DNA of 18,918 nt from a virus (lineage: Duplodnaviria; Heunggongvirae; Uroviricota; Caudoviricetes): the IMG/VR virus record IMGVR_UViG_2695420617_000013, positions 1 to 18,918 of that record, one strand, 5' to 3'. The position numbers and the translations under genes are program-made. Under the pieces are notes generated by a model. That model was given only the letters and a program-made list of their open reading frames with translations. It made no database searches and was not told the DNA's origin. The first letter of the stretch is position 1, and the number at the start of each line of letters is the position of its first letter. Positions 1,906-17,694 of this stretch are shown piece by piece.

Positions 1906-2121
1906 TTACTCTCTTCTCGCAACCTTACGCCTGTCTTCTTTAATCTTGAAATAAAGGTTTGTCAGATACGTCAGCAGGCCAAAAACCAGACTACCCAGCA
2001 CACCGATTGCAGCCCACTGTGACGGAGTTACTTTATCGAGTAACTGCAATGCCCAGAAACCAGCATTACCAGCCGATGTGCCATAGGCGATACCTGTTGT
2101 TAACTTATCCATTGATTTCAT
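1906..2121 (-). CDS. essQ: Class II pinholin, S21-like, with dual-start motif (71 aa)
   Basis: [26 protein letters not shown]...[17 protein letters not shown] closely resembles phage 21 S / E. coli Ess holins. Two in-frame ATGs (M1 and M4) give the classic antiholin/holin dual start; two TM segments and a charged C-terminus. Confidence 0.85.
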
Positions 2122-2288
2122 ATCCTCACCCCGATGTACACAGATGGTGCAATATGTTTGAAAAGATCGGAGTCTATGGGTTAGTTTTTATAGCAAACGT
2201 TGTTCTCAACGGCGCTAAAAAACAGACACATTAAAAATGTGGGTAATTATTTTAAATGAAAATCATATATTAAATAATAATACGAGAT

Positions 2289-2510
2289 ATGTTTTCATAT
2301 TTAGTGTACTGTATACGGCTATTTATACAGGAAAAGCCTATGTCAGAACGTAAAGACTCAAAATCACGCCGTAATTATCTCGTTAAATGTTCCTGCCCAA
2401 ACTGCACCCAAGAGTCAGAACACAGTTTTTCAAGAGTACAAAAAGGTGCCCTTTTGATCTGCCCTCATTGCAACAAAGTATTCCAGACAAATCTTAAAGC
2501 TGTAGCTTGA
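2289..2510 (+). CDS. ydfK: Small Cys4 zinc-ribbon protein, YdfK/YnaE-like
   Basis: CSCPNC...CPHCNK four-Cys motif in a small basic protein. Two candidate ATG starts (2289; 2340 with an AGGA-like RBS). Followed by a bidirectional terminator at 2571-2595. Sits in the csp cluster of the prophage late region as in Qin/Rac. Confidence 0.55.
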   Translation: MFSYLVYCIRLFIQEKPMSERKDSKSRRNYLVKCSCPNCTQESEHSFSRVQKGALLICPHCNKVFQTNLKAVA

Positions 2511-2570
2511 TTGATTTTATTCGTAACAAGTATTTTTTATATTTTAATAACATATTTAAAGCAGATAATA

Positions 2571-2595
2571 AAAAACCCGCCTGAGCGGGTTTAAT
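2571..2595. terminator. Bidirectional intrinsic terminator (aaacccgc-ctga-gcgggttt)
   Basis: Perfect GC-rich hairpin flanked by an A-run upstream and a T-run downstream, so it can terminate both ydfK-like (+) and cspB (-) transcripts. Confidence 0.6.
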
Positions 2596-2873
2596 ATTGT
2601 GGTGCTTTTTGTGGGAGTCATCCACTTACGCACTTTGTTTTGCTATGCCAGCAGTTAGCTTCTGCTGTAAAACTATTCATGCAGCAAACCTGCACTTCAC
2701 CACAATGGTTAGCATACTTTTCCTGATTAAGTTATTGCCAAATATGCTGGCCATTGTTTCATGTATTGGACCTCCTTACTATTTATTAAAGAGATCCAAT
2801 ATTCACCACTCTGTCTGTATCTCCACTCAGGCATCAGCCTTCTTCGTTATCGTATACAGACAAACTATGAATT

Positions 2874-3089
2874 TTAATCAGTAATTATGACATTTGCTGC
2901 TGCAGGACCTTTAGCACCACTCTCTACAGAGAAGGTAACCTTTTGACCTTCAAATAAGGTTCGAAAATTATCATTCTGAATCGCAGAAAAATGCACAAAC
3001 ACATCTTTACTACCATCAACAGGAGAAATAAAGCCAAAACCTTTATCAGCGTTAAACCATTTTACTAAACCAGTCATTTTATTTGACAT
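2874..3089 (-). CDS. cspB: Cold-shock protein CspB (CspA family), 71 aa
   Basis: [38 protein letters not shown]... with RNP1/RNP2 motifs (KGFGFI, VFVHF); near-identical to E. coli CspB as recalled. Long AT-rich upstream region typical of cold-shock 5' UTRs. Confidence 0.9.
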
Positions 3090-3389
3090 TCTACATTCCT
3101 TAACTTGAGCCTTTCGGCATAAATGGCTTGTATAACAGAAACGACTTCGTACTTAATTGGAGAGACTCAAAGAAGGAATAAGTGAATAACACCTGAAATG
3201 AGAACTGCTTTAGTAAACTACTTCGTATATCGTCTGTTCTTCAAACCGACGCAATCATTAACGCATAGTTGAACATATGAAGCAATGTTTATTTTAGACA
3301 TCCAGCCATCTTCAACCCCATCAAAAAACTATAGCTTTCTTCAGGAAGGTGTGTATAGTGCGCCCAGTTATCAGTATTAAGGAATTTTT

Positions 3390-3602
3390 TTGTCCCGTAA
3401 AATGACAGGAATTGTCAAAACCTTTGACGGCAAAAGCGGCAAGGGTCTTATCACCCCATCCGATGGTCGTATCGATGTCCAGCTTCATGTTTCAGCGCTC
3501 AATCTCCGCGATGCAGAAGAAATTGCCACCGGATTACGCGTGGAATTTTGCCGGATAAATGGTCTGCGTGGCCCTTCAGCTGCCAATGTTTACCTTTCAT
3601 GA
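3390..3602 (+). CDS. cspF: Cold-shock-like protein CspF/CspH family, 70 aa
   Basis: [36 protein letters not shown]...[19 protein letters not shown] matches the CspF/CspH subfamily. TTG start as given in the ORF track. Divergent from cspB. Confidence 0.85.
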
Positions 3603-9914: not shown

Positions 9915-10525
9915 GCGTTAGTTTCTCCACAATTAGAAGCAATCGACGCCACGACGCCCGGAGCTGCACACTCGCGGGCGTCATTACTTTCTGAAATGCA
10001 AAAGATTTTGTAGACCAGTGCTGCATGCTCCTGCAGCTTCGAAATTGACAGGTACAGTTCGTCGTTAATTGCTGCCTGCTCGTGTGGTTCCACCACCCCG
10101 TCTTCAATTGCTGAACGAATCTGTTTTGAATAACTGCCGATCTGTTCAATGACCTCCAGCAGGCGTTGGTTTATATCGGCGTTCTCTACTTCCTCAATTT
10201 CAGGAAGCGATACAAACACCCCACCAGCAGACTGTGCGACTGCATCCGCAATGTGGTGAGTGCCAGCAGCACGCTGTAAAACCATTGCCCATCCCAGCGG
10301 GAAAATCTGATCGCCATCGGCACGAAGGCGGTTAAATAATGCGTTCTCTGTTACATCCAGCCAGTCAGCAGCTTCAGCGTAACCCCCCGGCAATGCCGCG
10401 ATAGTTTTTCTGACAGCTTTCACGTACCACTCAGGCTGTTTTTCTACTTTCCAGTGATGCTTACCCACGGTTAGCCTCATCGTTCTGTGGTTTCTGTTAA
10501 TCGATTTATCCATTAGATTTTTCAT
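9911..10525 (-). CDS. YdaT-like / cII-position regulatory protein
   Basis: Occupies the slot directly after the cro-like gene, as ydaT does in Rac-type prophages. Start assigned to the internal ATG at 10525 to limit overlap with cro; the ORF-track start is 10582. Family assignment is from position and general resemblance only. Confidence 0.4.
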
Positions 10526-10706
10526 AAAGCTCAGGTTTAAATGGCAACCGTCCGCAAGTTCTATATGCAGCTTCTGCTGCACGTCCTTTTGGAATTAACT
10601 GGCCCGGACGGTTTCGCCACTGATAAACGGCTTCAGTTGTTATGCCGAAAAAAGCAGCAACTTTCTCAATACTGCCGAAGTAGCTTTCGATATCGTCAGT
10701 TGTCAT
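10506..10706 (-). CDS. Cro-like HTH repressor (66 aa)
   Basis: Small HTH protein (FGITTEAVYQWRNRPGQ) transcribed divergently from the cI-like repressor. Strong GGAGGG RBS upstream. Confidence 0.6.
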   Translation of the reverse strand: MTTDDIESYFGSIEKVAAFFGITTEAVYQWRNRPGQLIPKGRAAEAAYRTCGRLPFKPELYEKSNG

Positions 10707-10803
10707 ACGCCCTCCAAACTAAGTTTTATTAGATGCTAATTACAAATCTATCTTTGGTCAATAAAAACTAAGATTACTTAGCAATTCAAGAAATGGTGCT
10801 CCT
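10707..10803. promoter_or_regulatory. Immunity-region operator/promoter (OR-like) between cro-like and cI-like genes
   Basis: 97-bp AT-rich divergent intergenic region with repeated CTAAG/CTTAG half-sites (e.g. CTAAGATTACTTAG, CTAAGTTTTATTAG) and a TTGACC -35-like element for the cro-direction promoter. Confidence 0.4.
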
Positions 10804-11430
10804 ATGGAAACGGTTGGTCAGCGTATAAAAGCTCTGAGAAGAGTTACCAGAACGTCCCAGAAAGAATTGGGTAAATTTTGTGGAGTAAGCGACGTTGCTG
10901 TGGGGTACTGGGAGAAAGACATCAATACCCCTGGTGGGGAGGCACTTTCGAAATTAGCGAAGTTCTTCAATACGTCAATAGATTACATTCTTTATGGTGC
11001 TGAGTTTGAAGGCAAACTCGTCACAAACATGCGCAGAGTTCCTGTAATATCGTGGGTTCAGGCTGGGCAGTTTACTGAGTGCAGGGCAGCAGAAGTGTTT
11101 AGTGAAGTGGACAAGTGGGTAGATACATCATTAAAGATTGGTGATAACTCATTTGCATTAGAGGTTAAAGGTGACTCCATGACTAACCCTAATGGCCTCC
11201 CAACAATACCAGAAGGCGCAACAGTGATTGTAGATCCAGATGCAGAACCTCGTCATGGAAAAATAGTCATCGCTCGACTTGATGGAACAAACGAAGCTAC
11301 AGTAAAAAAATTAGTCATCGATGGCCCTCAAAAGTTTTTAGTGCCATTAAATCCTCGGTATCCCAACATCCCTATCAATGGTAATTGCCTTATCATTGGT
11401 GTAGTCAAAGGAGTTCAATACGAACTCTAA
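10804..11430 (+). CDS. CI-like prophage repressor (HTH-XRE N-terminus, S24 LexA-like autopeptidase C-terminus), 208 aa
   Basis: N-terminal HTH (SQKELGKFCGVSDVAVGYWEKD). C-terminal S24 signature with the Ser nucleophile in GDSM and a downstream Lys (VKKL). Implies a RecA/SOS-cleavable repressor. Confidence 0.9.
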   Translation: METVGQRIKALRRVTRTSQKELGKFCGVSDVAVGYWEKDINTPGGEALSKLAKFFNTSIDYILYGAEFEGKLVTNMRRVPVISWVQAGQFTECRAAEVFSEVDKWVDTSLKIGDNSFALEVKGDSMTNPNGLPTIPEGATVIVDPDAEPRHGKIVIARLDGTNEATVKKLVIDGPQKFLVPLNPRYPNIPINGNCLIIGVVKGVQYEL

Positions 11431-11439
11431 GACCTCTCT

Positions 11440-11632
11440 TCTCTAACTAAGGCACCGAACTAAGAAAAGTTTGGTGTTTTCTCTTGCTATAATAACTAAG
11501 TTAAGTTAGATTTTATATCAAAGATAACGAACAGGCAGGACGCCCACGAAGTAGCCGCCGGTGGCGTATGAATGACCGGATGATTCGTTAGCAACAAAAA
11601 AAGCGCCCTATAGGACGCTTCGCTCTTTAACA
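11440..11632 (+). promoter_or_regulatory. Candidate pL-like promoter/operator region with rrn-type boxA-like motif
   Basis: CTAAG operator-like repeats (aactaaggcaccgaactaag; aactaagttaagttag) flank an extended -10 (tTGcTATAAT) near 11484-11492. Downstream motif GCTCTTTAACAA at about 11618-11629 matches the core of the boxA element as I recall it, preceded by a palindrome gcgccctataggacgc. Confidence 0.3.
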
Positions 11633-11664
11633 ATCCTGGTATCCCCGTAACAAAAGAGGGTTCT

Positions 11665-11958
11665 ATGGTCATATTCTGTGCTTACGTTCATCCTAATGGA
11701 TTTTTTATCAGCACCAACCAACAAGACGAATTCTGGATTCTACTTAGTAAGCAGGTCGGATGGGGACGATTCTGTCTAATCCGACCAGAATCAGAATTTA
11801 CAGAGAATGGAGGGCTTTTTGAATTACGTGAAATACGTCCGGCAGATGGTCAAGCCCCTGACCAAGTAATCGAATCGTCAGCTGTTTTATGGCGTCGGCA
11901 GGAAGCGTTCGAAGCTGAGAGAGTAATTTCTTCTTATCTTCAGTCGTGGCAGAAGTAG
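11665..11958 (+). CDS. Hypothetical protein (97 aa), first ORF downstream of the putative pL
   Basis: Good RBS (aaagagggttctATG). No recognisable domain and not Arg-rich (not N-like). Its 3' 160 nt overlap the convergent ORF 11798..12301, so one of the two may be mis-called. Confidence 0.35.
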   Translation: MVIFCAYVHPNGFFISTNQQDEFWILLSKQVGWGRFCLIRPESEFTENGGLFELREIRPADGQAPDQVIESSAVLWRRQEAFEAERVISSYLQSWQK

Positions 11959-12301
11959 AACTATTGATGATACGTTCAAGTTCACAGAGAGTCTCATCAT
12001 GCAATCTTATTGTCATAATCCCAAGAATAGCTTTAAGACCTCCATCATCACGAATGAAATCAATTCCATCTTTAGTAATTCTTAATTCAGGAATATTTAT
12101 ATTTATGCCATCCAAGTAATAATCAAGAGCATTCTTAATCAAGCCATGTTCTTCGAGATAAATTAAGTTCGAAATTAGGACATTATCATCTCCAAATGCG
12201 TCACGAACAGACTGCAACGCATCATCAGAAATTTCATAAGGATGAGCATCATACAGTATTTGTAACAACTGCCTTTGTGCACTTCTATCAAATTTGTCCA
12301 T
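11798..12301 (-). CDS. Hypothetical AT-rich protein with predicted winged-helix motif (DUF2513-like?), convergent with the cI/pL direction
   Basis: Strongly AT-rich coding sequence (about 11960-12300) versus GC-balanced flanks. Motif NLIYLEEHGLIKN resembles a wHTH recognition helix. Opposite orientation to all neighbours. A hairpin (ggtcggat...atccgacc) follows its stop. Confidence 0.5.
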   Translation of the reverse strand: MDKFDRSAQRQLLQILYDAHPYEISDDALQSVRDAFGDDNVLISNLIYLEEHGLIKNALDYYLDGININIPELRITKDGIDFIRDDGGLKAILGIMTIRLHDETLCELERIINSSTSATTEDKKKLLSQLRTLPADAIKQLTIRLLGQGLDHLPDVFHVIQKALHSL

Positions 12302-12579
12302 CTTAAATAATCACCATGTTATTGGGGTTATCAAGATTAACCGAATCCTTGTTGTTGGGGAATAACCAGGTCCACCTCGCCTGATGTGGCTAAAAGCAGG
12401 CACATAACAGCTAAGTATTTTCAACCAGAGAGAATCCTTAGCGTTGTGGTGAATGCGGCTCAGCGCACGCGGGTTAAGGTTGAGGCTGACAGTCGACCTT
12501 CTGTGGATACCCACCCGCCTGGTGTGCAACCTTCGCCAGGCACCGGGAGGCACCCGGCACCACAACAGCCACTGCTTTG

Positions 12580-12714
12580 GCGGTACCAGTTTGTACACTT
12601 GCTTCCGGCTGGTACCGCTCTTTTTACAAAACAGAGAAGAGCATCACCGGACGACGGGCTCATAACCCAATCCACCCGGGCGGCTGCCACCGCAGGTGTT
12701 CTTCTCTGTTTTGT
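12580..12714 (+). promoter_or_regulatory. Structured leader: terminator-like hairpin plus long imperfect inverted repeat upstream of the yfdP-like operon
   Basis: Hairpin cggtaccag-(loop)-ctggtaccg followed by ctcttttt (12582-12625). Immediately after, acaaaacagagaaga...tcttctctgttttgt forms a 15-bp perfect stem extended by 4 more bp across a bulge, enclosing a 46-nt GC-rich loop. The terminator U-tract (ctcttttt) overlaps sequence complementary to the second stem (agaagag), so the two structures are mutually exclusive. boxA-like CGCTCTTTTTAC at about 12617. Confidence 0.4.
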
Positions 12715-12762
12715 GGAGAAACCAACCGACCTTGCAGGGTCGATATGATGAGGAGCAGCAAA

Positions 12763-15652: not shown

Positions 15653-15900
15653 TGAACAACTTAATGACAACTAAACAAGTCGCCGACTTCTGTGGCGTTT
15701 CAGTATCGACCGTTCTTCGCTGGAACAGTGTAAACAGGAGAACTGGCCAGAAATACAGGCCAGACTTTCCAGATCCTGATATTAAATCCTGCCCAAATAA
15801 ATGGGCATCACGTAAGATTTACAAATTTGCCGGAGTTATTGAGGAATGTGAAGCAGCTCAGATTGAGATGACACATCCTATAGCACATAGCCAAACATAG
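15652..15900 (+). CDS. Excisionase-like / AlpA-type HTH DNA-binding protein (82 aa)
   Basis: HTH (TTKQVADFCGVSVSTVLRW) in a small protein at the distal end of the early-left operon near the integrase, the usual xis position. Start overlaps the upstream stop. Confidence 0.45.
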   Translation: MNNLMTTKQVADFCGVSVSTVLRWNSVNRRTGQKYRPDFPDPDIKSCPNKWASRKIYKFAGVIEECEAAQIEMTHPIAHSQT

Positions 15901-16096
15901 CAATCAGACTGTCCGCTTTGTGTTGAAGCGGACATTGCCGCAGCGACTTGTCTTAGCCATAAATAACCAAAACGATGCGCTGTTCATATAAAGTTCTTTT
16001 AAACTTCAAATCAGTAATTTTTGTCTAAATCTTTTCAAACTCATAAAAACCAGTAAGATAAGAAATCACCTTTACCTGTTTTTATGAGAGGCATAA

Positions 16097-17323
16097 ATGA
16101 TTGATAATGAAGTTAAAATTTTTGCAAAAGAAAAAGAAAAAATGCTGTGCAGCAAACTTTCTTTTTACAGGGAGCATGCTCAATCGAGTGAAGATACAAG
16201 AAAAAGAAACGAATTTGAACGAGACTATGCGCGTATTCTTTATTCCTCTTCGTTCCGCCGGTTACAGGGAAAAATGCAGCTCTTTGAAGTCGATCCTCAA
16301 AAATTTAACCGTAATAGACTGACTCATAGCCTAGAAGTTGCCCAGATAGCCCGAAGCATCGCATCCGAACTAGAACTTGAACATCCTGTTGTAGCAGAAC
16401 TGGCTGCACTTGCTCACGATATTGGCAACCCTCCGTTTGGTCATTCCGGTGAAAAAAAGCTAAACGATATTGCTAATGATTTCGGCGGCTACGAAGGCAA
16501 TGCGCAGGCACTTAGAATACTCAGAAGTCTCGAGATAAAGCATCCAAATTGCCCCGGTCTCAACCTTACCCACCGTGCCATTCTCTCCGTCGTTAAATAT
16601 CCTTATAAAAAGGAAAACGGCAGAAAAAAATATCTTTATAATGATGACTATAAATACTACACAGAATTGGTAAATAGATATGAATTAGATTTGCAGACTG
16701 GCGAGAAGACCATTGATGCACAGATAATGGATCTGTCAGACGAAATTGCATATGCCGCGCATGACCTTGAAGATGCACTAAGCCGTAGCATGGTCAGTAT
16801 TGAAGATATTTTTTATGAGTTTGGGATATCCAAGTACAAAGACTCAATTGATTTATTAAATACAATCATTGAAAAATCTAAATATACAGCTTCGAGAGCA
16901 TCAAGACTCAATTCATCTGAAGAGTTCGCCATAATATTCAGAAAGGAATTGACATCCAATATTGTTAATGCGCTTGTTAATGATATTACTGTTATTCAAA
17001 GTGAAAATGGATTCAAGCAACTTGGATTTAGCACTACAAAAAATCTGTCTGCAGGCCTTAAAGATATCGTATTTAAAGTCATCATGCGAAAAAGAGATAT
17101 TAAAAGTTATGAGCACAAAGGAAACATTATCATCGAAGATTTATTTAATTTTTATAATGATAGAGATAACATAGAATTCATATCCCCTCAATTGTATAGA
17201 ACGCTCCCAAATAAAATAGAGCCTATTTATCAAGAACTTAAAAAACGTGCAATTGTCGACTACATCTCTGGAATGATGGATACATTTGCCATCCGCGAGT
17301 GGGAAACGCATCACAAAAAATAA
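16097..17323 (+). CDS. Dgt-family HD-domain dNTP triphosphohydrolase (dGTPase-like), 408 aa; candidate anti-phage dNTP-depletion enzyme
   Basis: Conserved dGTPase motifs: DYARILYSSSFRRLQGKMQLF, RLTHSLEVAQIARSI, HDIGNPPFGHSGE, DEIAYAAHDLEDA. Strong GAGAGG RBS. The gene is markedly AT-rich relative to the flanking prophage genes and sits alone between the excisionase-like gene and the convergent integrase. Confidence 0.85.
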   Translation: MIDNEVKIFAKEKEKMLCSKLSFYREHAQSSEDTRKRNEFERDYARILYSSSFRRLQGKMQLFEVDPQKFNRNRLTHSLEVAQIARSIASELELEHPVVAELAALAHDIGNPPFGHSGEKKLNDIANDFGGYEGNAQALRILRSLEIKHPNCPGLNLTHRAILSVVKYPYKKENGRKKYLYNDDYKYYTELVNRYELDLQTGEKTIDAQIMDLSDEIAYAAHDLEDALSRSMVSIEDIFYEFGISKYKDSIDLLNTIIEKSKYTASRASRLNSSEEFAIIFRKELTSNIVNALVNDITVIQSENGFKQLGFSTTKNLSAGLKDIVFKVIMRKRDIKSYEHKGNIIIEDLFNFYNDRDNIEFISPQLYRTLPNKIEPIYQELKKRAIVDYISGMMDTFAIREWETHHKK

Positions 17324-17694
17324 CCAAACTGGCGCACATCAACAACAGATTCAGTGCCACTCTTCCCATGGGACAGAACAGTGATTCTGTCCATTATCAC
17401 CCGATTATACAGATAAGCCACATCTAGTAGTTCTGAGCTAGCATTTTCCACATTGATTACGCTTCCGTGCACATCGTTATTTTTAACCAAAAAGAAAGGA
17501 CATACGCAAAAATAATATCAAGTAACGGAGTGTGTTAAATCGTAACCAATCATCTTTACTTTACATTTCGTAACTTAAACCGTACGTTTTCTAAACATTA
17601 AATATACACTTTGCGCTGTAAGTTATATCTCTCCGTTAAGCTCACTGCTCAACGCCAATAGTCATATTTTATTGCGTTCTGGCTGCGCAAATTG

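Follow-up and report, generated by a model that had tools for sequence, protein, structure and literature searches.

Do two open reading frames (ORFs) that converge beside the cI repressor gene of a temperate phage, and share their 3' ends, represent two genes or a single mis-called one, and what could such a pair do for its carrier? The question arises in an 18,918-nt stretch of a Caudoviricetes genome (IMG/VR record IMGVR_UViG_2695420617_000013), hereafter the window. Its cI gene (10804-11430) matches the Pfam families Peptidase_S24 and HTH_3, and the large gene of the pair lies downstream on the opposite strand, 368 nt from the cI stop codon (Table 1). The initial annotation had described an AT-rich minus-strand ORF of 167 aa, oriented against cI and pL, that overlaps a plus-strand ORF of 97 aa by about 160 nt. 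The ORF coordinates confirm this orientation, the overlap measures 161 nt, and base composition is indeed not uniform, with a GC content of 0.379 in the large ORF (12th percentile of all 504-nt windows) against 0.461 in the whole window. Outside the overlap the GC content of the large ORF is 0.338 (3rd percentile), that of the overlap itself is 0.466, and GC3 is 0.30 in the large gene versus 0.37-0.50 in the adjoining genes. The large-gene region is really, and moderately, AT-rich. Other islands of the window, at 2100-3450 and 15750-17400, are equally AT-rich. Within the overlap lie the codons for residues 45-97 of the small protein and for about residues 115-167 of the large one, and codon position 1 of each gene faces position 1 of the other. 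A minus-strand ORF of 58 aa (11496-11672) and the ORFs within the GC-rich stretch 12311-12748 have no family match and were treated as spurious.

Table 1. Position of the two genes, their shared segment, the cassette and the associated sequence signals in the window
Feature	Position	Strand	Description
Large gene	11798-12301	minus	167 aa, ATG start; WP_000357060.1, annotated 'hypothetical protein'
Small gene	11665-11958	plus	97 aa, ATG start; without annotation in PGAP or phage records
Dual-coding overlap	11798-11958	both	161 nt; the two ORFs are convergent and share their 3' ends
Portable cassette	11622-12408		Gene pair shared with a P2-like Salmonella prophage (L008)
pL promoter	11484-11512	plus	-35 TTGCTA (11484-11489), 17-nt spacer, -10 TAGATT (11507-11512); read from sequence
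Alternative extended -10	11485-11493		TGCTATAAT, overlapping pL
oL operators	11459-11473; 11495-11509		ACTAAGAAAAGTTTG (1 mismatch); ACTAAGTTAAGTTAG; same type as oR
Predicted intrinsic terminator	11590-11621	minus	9-pair hairpin GAAGCGTCCTATAGGGCGCTTT, then TTTTGTTGCT; terminator scan
boxA-like sequence	11621-11633	plus	CGCTCTTTAACAA; 31 nt before the small ORF, marks the left end of the cassette
Predicted sigma-70-like promoter of the large gene	12307-12334	minus	TTGATA, 16-nt spacer, GATTAT; promoter scan, 9/12 matches
Direct repeats CCCCAAYAACA	12317-12360	minus	Copies at 12317-12327 (promoter spacer) and 12350-12360 (upstream of the -35)

The initial annotation left it undecided whether the overlap is unusual or one of the genes mis-called; comparison with relatives upholds the overlap and speaks against the mis-call. 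Of 90 related loci, 89 carry a recognisable small ORF antisense to the large gene (3 disrupted, 1 cut by a contig end), the frame relation between the two is identical in 88 of 88, and the overlap spans 152-218 nt. Most of the 58 distinct small-ORF sequences have an ATG preceded by a Shine-Dalgarno sequence, with GGAGG, GAGG or GGGGG 4-10 nt before the aligned start (here GAGGG at 11656-11660 on the plus strand, 4 nt before the ATG), and the motifs HPNGFF, DFWV.LS..GWG+F and VLW are kept across them.

Could the 97-aa frame nevertheless be no gene at all, but an accidental open frame lying over the constrained 3' end of the large gene and its 3' UTR and terminator? PGAP and all phage records call only the large gene, called proteins of the small family number only 86 among 5.8 billion, and within the overlap the small ORF has a dN/dS of about 1.1, the codon pattern of the large gene being dominant there. 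Against this reading, the 133-172 nt of the small ORF outside the large gene evolve as coding sequence, with pN 0.379 versus pS 0.782 (dN/dS about 0.29) and with 27050, 20395 and 39003 differences at codon positions 1, 2 and 3, that is, fewest at the second position and most at the third. In the large gene synonymous sites are suppressed two-fold within the overlap (pS 0.829 outside, 0.417 inside), and third-position differences drop from 0.653 to 0.352. In a simulation conditioned on the large-protein sequence and the codon usage of the family, the antisense frame stays open over the last 50 codons by chance with a median P of 0.003 per lineage; it is actually open in 51 of 55 distinct relatives, and along the rest of the large gene this frame is interrupted by 3.4 stops per 150 nt. 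Moreover, in some loci the large gene is reduced to its overlapped stub with the small ORF still intact. With the start codon and Shine-Dalgarno sequence kept by most relatives as well, an accidental frame is highly improbable. Synonymous change is halved, the frame relation constant and an open frame improbable by chance; computationally, the comparison shows two real genes, each subject to purifying selection, and an overlap that selection maintains. We accordingly hold the gene structure, two convergent protein genes with 161 doubly coding nucleotides, to be very probable. The overlap is the sole part of the pair alignable as DNA with distant relatives, and it contains the codons of the residues that are best conserved in either protein.

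What are the two proteins? The large one is a full-length member of phrog_3983 (E = 2.6e-59, residues 1-165 against profile positions 1-164 of 165), a phage protein family without assigned function in PHROGs, which comprises 1136 clusters at 50% identity and occurs in at least 498 viral contigs. Its predicted structure consists of an N-terminal winged helix (about residues 1-88), confidently modelled with a MarR-like fold, and a four-helix C-terminal region, in agreement with the winged-helix motif that had been read from the sequence earlier. Residues 1-88 have a pI of 4.25 and a net charge of -10, and the helix in the recognition position (helix 3; consensus ANLxYLxEHGLI) carries no conserved K or R among 27 aligned relatives. 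The small protein is predicted to form five beta strands and a C-terminal helix (pLDDT 71); it is acidic (pI 4.9), has a GRAVY of -0.27 and no hydrophobic segment. Neither protein has a significant match in Pfam, NCBIfam or PADLOC: Pfam HTH and MarR models give none for the large protein at E <= 1 and NCBIfam none, the PADLOC scan returned only a chance-level match (E = 0.013), with no KilA-N or other domain, and neither Pfam nor PHROGs has a family for the small protein. Chance matches only (E > 0.3) came from a profile search of PDB sequences, a Foldseek comparison of the large-protein model with BFVD found only generic winged-helix or YjcQ-like matches (E > 1e-3), and a literature search on WP_000357060 and phrog_3983 found no paper. 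Neither PGAP annotation nor Pfam nor PHROGs includes the small partner, even though the family of the large protein exceeds 1,000 clusters. Both proteins are acidic, and a simple charge-driven complex between them is not favoured.

The genomic distribution of the pair suggests what kind of element it is. A blastn comparison of the window with the P2-like Salmonella prophage finds homology limited to 11622-12408, at 78.5% identity. Phages 689R6 and SfV have flanks of 94-95% identity with different cargo in between, the exchanged segment corresponding to 11654-12317 for 689R6 and 11590-12371 for SfV. The cargo genes of 689R6 (144 and 68 aa) and orf33 of SfV were considered as distant relatives of the pair and rejected at hhalign probabilities below 3%. 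Insertion sites of the cassette include the cI/pL region, a position following the Q antiterminator gene and the interval that separates Rz from the small terminase subunit; genes adjoining it in other loci encode Q antiterminators, holins, Rz, small terminase subunits and CI repressors. Its pairing, orientation, frame relation and overlap length are kept down to 29-40% identity of the large protein and in at least four kinds of insertion site, and it is present across phages of Gamma- and Betaproteobacteria, in hundreds of temperate phages. Morons, as defined by Juhala and Hendrix, are additional genes inserted between conserved phage genes and equipped with a promoter and terminator of their own; normally each forms one autonomous transcription unit. 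The cassette resembles morons in its variable presence as extra DNA between conserved flanks, its predicted own promoter and terminator, its lower GC content (0.38 versus 0.46) and its location at usual moron sites, and differs from them in that its second gene follows the transcription direction of the phage operon around it and has coding DNA in common with the first. Judged by these features, the two genes together form a portable accessory cassette of prophages, or 'moron'. The small ORF, which moves with the large gene to other sites, is an obligate-looking partner of the winged-helix gene and not an ordinary neighbour. As the first ORF of the pL unit it was also considered as an N-like antiterminator, and this was rejected, since an arginine-rich motif is missing and the ORF accompanies the large gene to late-operon and P2-like sites.

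Each gene is also found without the other. Small-only loci are known (L116/L117, L118, L125), and the large gene occurs with the small ORF disrupted or absent (L023/L093, L028, L091, L100 and several distant lineages), so a strict partner or antidote relationship is not required; these natural small-only and large-only loci offer ready-made genetic controls. In 46 of 55 distinct loci the small ORF follows a gene of its own direction, often at a distance of only 3-15 nt. The co-directional neighbour upstream of the large gene is a repressor of the CI/Cro or Arc/Mnt type in 5 of 10 loci scanned, and a repressor stands there also in phage GF-2 and in Acinetobacter loci. In the Acinetobacter loci L126-L129 the small ORF stands antisense to cI as well as to the adjoining genes; there it must have its own promoter, and the drive from a lytic operon is therefore not universal.

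How would the pair be expressed? The pL promoter aligns column for column with TTGACC-17-TAGATT in Mangrovibacter and TTGACA-17-CATAAT in the hetero-immune phage SfV, directly after the cI terminator. The operator pattern ACTAAGN5TTAG has 5 matches in the window against 0.92 expected, all of them at oR (10718-10732 and 10767-10781) or oL. The cassette lies inside the cI-repressed early-left (pL) transcription unit, and pL is followed first by the small gene, for which the cassette contains no promoter. The initial annotation had placed the large gene in the immunity-proximal site of exclusion genes; the exchanged cargo between near-identical flanks bears out a variable cargo site, but the supposed equivalence to the rexAB position does not hold because the operators and the promoter are upstream of the cassette. 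A pL following the cassette, which would restore the rex position, was considered and discarded, as the operators and the aligned promoter occur only at 11459-11512.

On the minus strand, the predicted terminator of the large gene lies 44 nt past the start codon of the small ORF, from which it follows that the large-gene mRNA should be antisense to the whole small ORF. The Mangrovibacter locus (L011) has a corresponding hairpin, and 8 of the 16 relatives examined contain terminator-like sites. The boxA-like sequence, which resembles the rrn/lambda boxA consensus, has a single match in the window; the same 12-mer precedes the small ORF in the Salmonella loci L008 and L009 and in L011, and is found also in phage 689R6. 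At the other end, only 5 nt separate the -10 element of the predicted large-gene promoter from the ATG, and a Shine-Dalgarno sequence is missing, so that the mRNA may be leaderless or nearly so. This promoter layout is kept before the Salmonella and Mangrovibacter homologues, which stand in other genomic contexts. The repeat CCCCAAYAACA has 3 matches against 0.72 expected, both copies of the pair at the promoter are kept in the Salmonella loci L008 and L010, and we regard them as a candidate regulatory site. Promoter, terminator and leaderless start are consensus-level predictions.

With the large gene having its own promoter and a terminator past the small gene, and with the small gene first in the pL unit, mutually exclusive expression of the two is predicted. 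We hypothesize that in the lysogen cI would shut off pL, leaving only the winged-helix gene transcribed, from which an mRNA of roughly 700 nt, antisense to the entire small gene, would arise. Upon derepression or infection, read-through from pL would yield the small protein and, at the same time, antisense RNA across the whole winged-helix gene, and expression would flip through polymerase collision and RNA duplex formation. The cassette would then act as a switch of the 'excludon' type, with the large protein made in lysogeny and the small one in lytic growth. We lean slightly towards such a switch, which is read from the arrangement of genes and signals. The layout suggests that a mobile cassette could choose between a lysogenic and a lytic product without a dedicated regulator.

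A precedent for this proposed division of labour between strands exists in Pseudomonas phage Fc02 (Beetrevirus), where olg1/olg2 and gene 10 overlap on opposite strands beside the repressor; lysogens express one strand and the early lytic operon the other, and either strand yields products that exclude superinfecting phages (Ramirez-Sanchez et al. 2023, PMC9936078). Both cases concern an opposite-strand overlap of protein genes next to the repressor of a temperate phage, and the promoter and operator layout and gene arrangement of the present locus fit a predicted division of the Fc02 type into a lysogenic and a lytic strand. In Fc02, however, the overlap is complete, involves three ORFs and is confined to one phage group, whereas the present overlap is 3'-3' convergent, 152-218 nt long and mobile across many phage types. 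A tblastn search with both proteins against 50,697 phage records gave no match in Beetrevirus, hence no detectable homology to the Fc02 group.

Several other explanations of the pair have to be weighed against this switch. The two could be functionally independent accessory genes whose 3' ends were extended into an overlap by genome compression, with no regulatory meaning, as the persistence of each gene without the other and the size pressure on phage genomes would allow. The conservation of pairing, orientation, frame and overlap (152-218 nt) over large divergence and at least four kinds of site speaks against independence, as does the concentration of the most conserved residues of both proteins within the overlap, and convergent, fully complementary units must physically interfere somewhat; we find it unlikely. 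A second alternative would make the winged-helix protein a DNA-binding regulator, for example an auxiliary repressor acting at CCCCAAYAACA, and the small protein its anti-repressor. The MarR-like fold of the model, the repeats at the gene's own promoter that are kept in Salmonella relatives, the frequent adjacency of CI, Cro, Arc/Mnt and Q regulators and the label 'putative transcriptional regulator' in one phage record would agree with it. The acidic N-terminal domain, the helix 3 devoid of a conserved basic residue and the missing Pfam HTH or MarR match do not, hopping among unrelated phage backbones and sites is unexpected of a core regulator, and phage 689R6 keeps the promoter repeats before a different cargo gene (homology resumes at 12318). 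The acidity of the winged-helix domain argues against a classical DNA-binding regulator, and the domain probably binds protein, not DNA; the regulator alternative, which had also been raised in the initial annotation, is weakened by these sequence properties and appears to us about as unlikely as independence.

A toxin-antitoxin or addiction module would be either type II-like, with the winged-helix protein as antitoxin and repressor and the small protein as toxin, or type I-like, with mutually antisense mRNAs. Two small genes co-travelling on mobile elements and located in prophages, a convergent 3' overlap of 150-220 nt and a helix-turn-helix-type fold in one partner are all in keeping with such a module. 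TxpA/RatA and BsrG/SR4 are type I pairs with convergent, 3'-overlapping transcripts, and the 'excludon' concept reportedly goes back to Sesto et al. 2013; the present pair resembles them in its convergent units, its 3' overlap of more than 100 nt, mutual antisense, prophage location and expected exclusive expression. At the level of ORFs, with transcript ends being predicted, the layout is that of a type I pair (3' ends overlapping by 161 nt here). Unlike TxpA/RatA and BsrG/SR4, however, both strands encode conserved proteins of 97 and 167 aa rather than a toxin peptide and an antitoxin RNA: the small protein, given its GRAVY and beta-rich model, is soluble-looking and no hydrophobic peptide, and its antisense partner is coding. 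Nor do the genes form the co-directional operon of type II modules, the winged-helix domain is acidic, and neither protein matches a toxin or antitoxin family in Pfam, NCBIfam or PADLOC. Co-occurrence is not obligate among the loci compared, and both small-only and large-only loci exist, at least one of which kinds would not be expected of an addictive pair. We therefore judge this explanation distinctly unlikely, less plausible than either of the two above.

If the switch is the preferred reading, what would its products be for? Lambda RexAB and the SieB proteins of P22 and lambda are encoded by accessory genes of the immunity region and are presumed to protect the lysogen from other phages; rexAB shares its transcript with cI and is located in the interval from cI to pL. 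The present genes are likewise accessory genes in or near the immunity region of a lambdoid prophage, and differ in lying downstream of pL, on the opposite strand in the case of the large gene, in overlapping a partner, in sharing no homology with RexAB or SieB and in encoding no membrane protein. Co-transcription with cI between cI and pL, the layout of rexAB and bstA, is absent from the window and is found in the Acinetobacter loci and in phage GF-2. BstA with its aba self-immunity element is a further prophage accessory locus, in a mosaic hot spot beside cI (Owen et al. 2021, PMC8585504). It is comparable in combining a lysogen-expressed protein of DNA-binding-type fold with a second, cis-encoded function when its own prophage turns lytic; it differs in lying on the cI strand, downstream of cI and probably with a shared promoter, and in having as partner a 63-bp DNA element, not a protein (PMC8585504). 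BstA also has a KilA-N domain and no sequence similarity to the large or the small protein. Indeed, the large protein shows no homology to the described defence proteins covered by PADLOC or to RexAB, SieB and BstA.

We propose that both proteins would be accessory factors benefiting the lysogen or the phage. An exclusion or abortive-infection role, as first conjectured for this locus, is suggested by genomic context alone, and a part in exclusion or defence, most likely superinfection exclusion or phage-phage conflict, is the weakest step of the proposal and a tentative possibility. For the explanation as a whole, a moron cassette with a switch and an accessory role, which we consider the best available, we see the case as evenly poised. 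The occurrence of the cassette in sites rich in defence and exclusion genes makes it a concrete candidate for a new prophage conflict module. One step further, the pair may be an ancient and widespread opposite-strand arrangement acting as a self-contained lysogeny/lysis toggle, with both proteins engaged in phage-phage conflict through exclusion or its self-directed relief, a broader view that we consider less likely than not. If true, the toggle pair would rank among the best-supported long antisense overlaps of bacteria or phages, and would reveal a small-protein family that Pfam and PHROGs lack owing to its suppression by gene callers.

Long antisense overlaps of two functional bacterial protein genes are disputed and systematically stripped by annotation pipelines, and the present locus provides strong support for one such overlap from comparative data alone. 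The antisense overlapping genes of E. coli O157:H7 and P. aeruginosa are reportedly embedded, mostly young ORFs recognised mainly by their expression. The pair described here shares with them a non-trivial antisense coding overlap suppressed by annotation pipelines, and differs in being old, in being kept across phages of Gamma- and Betaproteobacteria and in being supported by comparative signals of selection rather than by expression.

The sequence comparisons indicate that the 97-aa plus-strand ORF, which overlaps the 167-aa winged-helix gene of the opposite strand (the small and the large gene, respectively), is also a real gene, and this is our main result. Used as a tblastn query, the 97-aa sequence found antisense matches at five diverse loci (E = 1e-28 to 1e-49) that extend into the part outside the large gene, and an HMM built from these loci detected the antisense small ORF in 89 of the 90 loci encoding the large protein (of the 89, three are disrupted and one is truncated where its contig stops). 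In 88/88 loci the two frames stand in a constant relation, with codon position 1 opposite position 1. The 58 distinct small-ORF sequences have the motifs HPNGFF, DFWV.LS..GWG+F, LF.L.E and VLW..EA in common, and in the majority the ATG follows GGAGG, GAGG or GGGGG. Outside the large gene (118-172 nt), pN is 0.379 versus a pS of 0.782, dN/dS is about 0.29 where measurable, and differences per codon position number 27050/20395/39003; inside the overlap, the constraints of the large gene dominate. Synonymous divergence of the large gene is 0.829 outside the overlap and 0.417 within it, and third-position differences drop from 0.653 to 0.352, which is the classical mark of a second coding constraint. 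When synonymous codons were resampled over the last 50 codons of the large gene, the median probability that the antisense frame remained free of stops was 0.003; the frame is actually open in 51 of 55 distinct relatives, and elsewhere in the large gene the same frame has 3.4 stops per 150 nt. Only the segment 11808-11943, within the overlap, can be aligned with distant relatives at the DNA level. The 'unusual convergent overlap', one of the two alternatives in the initial annotation, is borne out by the conserved antisense ORF, the selection signals and the 161 nt shared between the two genes.

The small protein is almost never annotated, only the large gene appearing in PGAP and phage records, and called proteins of its family number just 86 among 5.8 billion. 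It has no Pfam or PHROG family, and no significant structural neighbour was found for its model (pLDDT 71), which consists of five strands and a C-terminal helix. The small partner is a protein family missed by annotation, and the cassette of both genes is a moron, a portable prophage accessory unit, whose genes form a conserved antisense dual-coding pair.

The large gene is likewise real. Its product matches phrog_3983 end to end (E = 2.6e-59), with homologues ranging in identity from 99% to 29% in Salmonella, Mangrovibacter, Kluyvera, Serratia and Proteus and in phages of Edwardsiella, Pseudomonas, Klebsiella, Acinetobacter and Halomonas; the family comprises 1136 clusters at 50% identity in a profile search, and 498 IMG/VR contigs encode a relative. 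Both ORFs lie exactly where the initial annotation had placed them, and its description of the large one stands: the ORF is AT-rich (GC 0.379 vs 0.461 for the window; 0.338, the 3rd percentile, outside the overlap, and an ordinary 0.466 within it), the AlphaFold model (23 homologues, pLDDT 80) has a winged helix of three helices and two strands at the N-terminus and four further helices after it, and Pfam, NCBIfam and PADLOC scans found no enzymatic or other domain. The idea of a regulator is weakened, since the winged-helix domain is acidic (pI 4.25, charge -10) and its recognition-position helix (ANLxYLxEHGLI) has no conserved basic residue, so that protein binding seems more likely than operator binding; the idea of a lysogen factor is plausible. 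Both proteins are acidic overall, and no link to a known activity was found for either.

Where does the cassette sit? The window is a lambdoid E. coli prophage, SfV/CPS-53-like, to which several complete genomes are 100% identical and whose integration site adjoins yjjG. The operator pattern ACTAAGN5TTAG has 5 matches in the window versus 0.9 expected, confined to two groups, and the promoter beside the second group aligns column for column with TTGACC-17-TAGATT of Mangrovibacter and TTGACA-17-CATAAT of the hetero-immune phage SfV. From this operator pattern and aligned promoter, pL would fire rightwards from about 11515, with the cassette inside the pL unit. Lambda rexAB lies between cI and pL; the cassette does not, and the rexAB-equivalent position originally assigned to it has to be corrected. 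With a scan-predicted terminator downstream and a promoter just before its ATG, which lacks a Shine-Dalgarno sequence, the predicted large-gene mRNA would be antisense to the entire small ORF, and the pL transcript to the entire large gene.

Features of the prophage window and of the cassette
Feature	Position	Strand or direction	Remarks
cspA thermoregulator match	2811-3250	-	157 bits vs threshold 78
cro	10506-10706	leftwards	replication genes likewise leftwards
ACTAAGN5TTAG, first group	10718, 10767		cro-cI gap
cI	10804-11430	rightwards	HTH_3 + Peptidase_S24
ACTAAGN5TTAG, second group	11459, 11495		just past cI terminator
Promoter TTGCTA-17-TAGATT	11484-11512		beside second operator group
pL leader	11526-11589	+	87.5% conserved even in hetero-immune SfV
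Hairpin	11600-11621	pL strand	upstream of boxA-like sequence; with T-run, intrinsic terminator on minus strand (scan prediction)
boxA-like CGCTCTTTAACAA	11621-33	+ (pL strand)	3' of hairpin
GAGGG Shine-Dalgarno, then ATG of 97-aa ORF		+	after boxA-like sequence
Small ORF (97 aa)	11665-11958	+	
Inverted imperfect CCCCAAYAACA copy, CCAACCAACAAGACGAATTC	11714-11733	+	5' part of small ORF
Overlap	11798-11958		161 nt
Large gene (167 aa)	11798-12301	-	WP_000357060.1
Predicted large-gene promoter TTGATA-16-GATTAT		-	ends 5 nt before large-gene ATG; promoter scan
Direct repeats CCCCAAYAACA	12317-12327, 12350-12360	-	in large-gene promoter
Structured RNA region	12372-12762	+	cassette-yfdP gap
STnc100 match (Rfam)	12425-12627		full-length, sub-threshold
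Perfect 10-bp hairpin	12580-12618		
25-bp hairpin	12626-12714		
yfdP, yfdQ, yfdR and further genes up to HTH (excisionase-like) gene		rightwards	
dGTPase-family gene (408 aa)	16097-17323	+	after excisionase-like gene
int		leftwards	after dGTPase-family gene

Gene structure, selection signals, the layout of promoter-, operator- and terminator-like sites and the context statistics were shown computationally; the mechanism is a proposal. During lysogeny, cI would silence pL, and the winged-helix gene would be expressed from its own promoter, its mRNA masking the small gene. Upon derepression, transcription reading through from pL, with a probable modification at the boxA site, would lead to translation of the small gene and interfere with the convergent transcription of the large one, so that expression would flip between the two in an 'excludon'-like manner. 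The role would be accessory and probably one in conflicts between phages. Pseudomonas phage Fc02 offers the closest precedent: of its opposite-strand overlapped genes, those of one strand are read in lysogeny and those of the other in lytic growth, and the products of both strands exclude phages (PMC9936078). The logic, that of a locus which also makes provision for its own prophage's lytic cycle, recalls BstA/aba in the same mosaic hot spot (PMC8585504).

The large gene belongs to the lysogeny side and the small gene usually follows the sense of a lytic operon, as judged from the identities and orientations of their neighbours. Both long neighbours are on the small-ORF strand in 33 of 55 distinct loci, and in 46 the gene ahead of the small ORF runs in its direction, often at a distance of 3-15 nt. 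On one side the neighbours include Q antiterminators (10), Rz and CI, and on the other holins, small terminase subunits and HTH proteins; in phage PhiR49_2 the pair lies between Rz and terminase genes. Of 10 co-directional upstream neighbours of the large gene that were scanned, 5 are repressors of the CI/Cro or Arc/Mnt type, and a repressor-type neighbour also occurs in phages GF-2 and AbIPP1 and in Acinetobacter loci. Acinetobacter loci L126-L129 are exceptional in that their small ORF runs against every neighbour and must, by this arrangement, have its own promoter.

P2-like Salmonella prophages carry the same pair, and homology with them spans 11622 to 12408, taking in the boxA-like sequence and the large-gene promoter with its two CCCCAAYAACA repeats, and in phages 689R6 and SfV unrelated genes replace the cassette between conserved flanks. 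E. coli seldom carries the cassette: 77 of 5426 complete genomes have it at 99% identity or more, in every case on the chromosome, and 31 others have distant relatives. True plasmids essentially lack it.

Could the two genes constitute an addictive toxin-antitoxin pair? Beside an intact large gene, the small ORF is disrupted by a frameshift in L028, by a nonsense mutation in L091, and also in L023/L093, and the HMM did not find it in the most distant large-family members (Xanthomonadales, Betaproteobacteria, Moraxella), in several of which the antisense frame is closed; L105, L109 and L112 may hold diverged variants. Conversely, the small ORF is intact in Gilliamella apicola (L116/L117) and two Acinetobacter genomes (L118, L125), where the large gene is reduced to its overlapped C-terminal 50-70 codons; these are natural deletion variants, useful as controls. 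Because neither gene strictly needs its partner, an addictive pair is disfavoured, and the distribution suggests that each gene has its own function.

Several other observations concern the surroundings of the cassette. The pL leader is followed by a hairpin and then the consensus boxA-like CGCTCTTTAACAA (11526-11633, +), the same order as in rrn operons; no N-like gene was seen. This suggests that the phage group uses N-independent or RNA-based processive antitermination. The inverted copy CCAACCAACAAGACGAATTC could be a binding site or a chance occurrence. Other phages carry unrelated cargo at the same site, bounded by the pL leader and the structured RNA (L002 2279-2891, vB_EcoM-689R6; L003 2091-2387, SfV orf33). 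In 689R6 a plus-strand 68-aa ORF converges on a minus-strand 144-aa ORF with a 29-nt overlap, a pair that is again convergent but not homologous to the cassette. From 12318 to 12371 the window and 689R6 share the -35 region and the CCCCAAYAACA repeats, so the exchange of cargo seems to break inside the large-gene promoter.

The gap before yfdP is GC-rich (0.52-0.58), non-coding and highly structured (-168 kcal/mol, z = -6.9 vs shuffles), and its STnc100 match scores 36 bits, below the gathering score of 47 (E = 7.6e-6); STnc100 itself, a prophage sRNA, is related to PasD (bioRxiv 10.64898/2026.05.13.724894). The stretch is 94-95% identical in 689R6 and SfV, and of 5426 E. coli genomes 2896 match a 1.4-kb query containing it, though only 76 at >=80% coverage. 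The stretch could be an sRNA gene, or its RNA could serve as a pL leader or in antitermination.

At least one more defence moron is probably present in the prophage, since dGTPases are a described type of anti-phage defence: the 408-aa gene, annotated as 'deoxyguanosinetriphosphate triphosphohydrolase family protein', sits in a low-GC island (0.30-0.38) with early-left genes on one side and the integrase on the other. The cspA thermoregulator match lies in a further low-GC island, on the downstream side of the Q-like antiterminator, and cspB, cspF and ynfU are annotated at its position in a matching genome.
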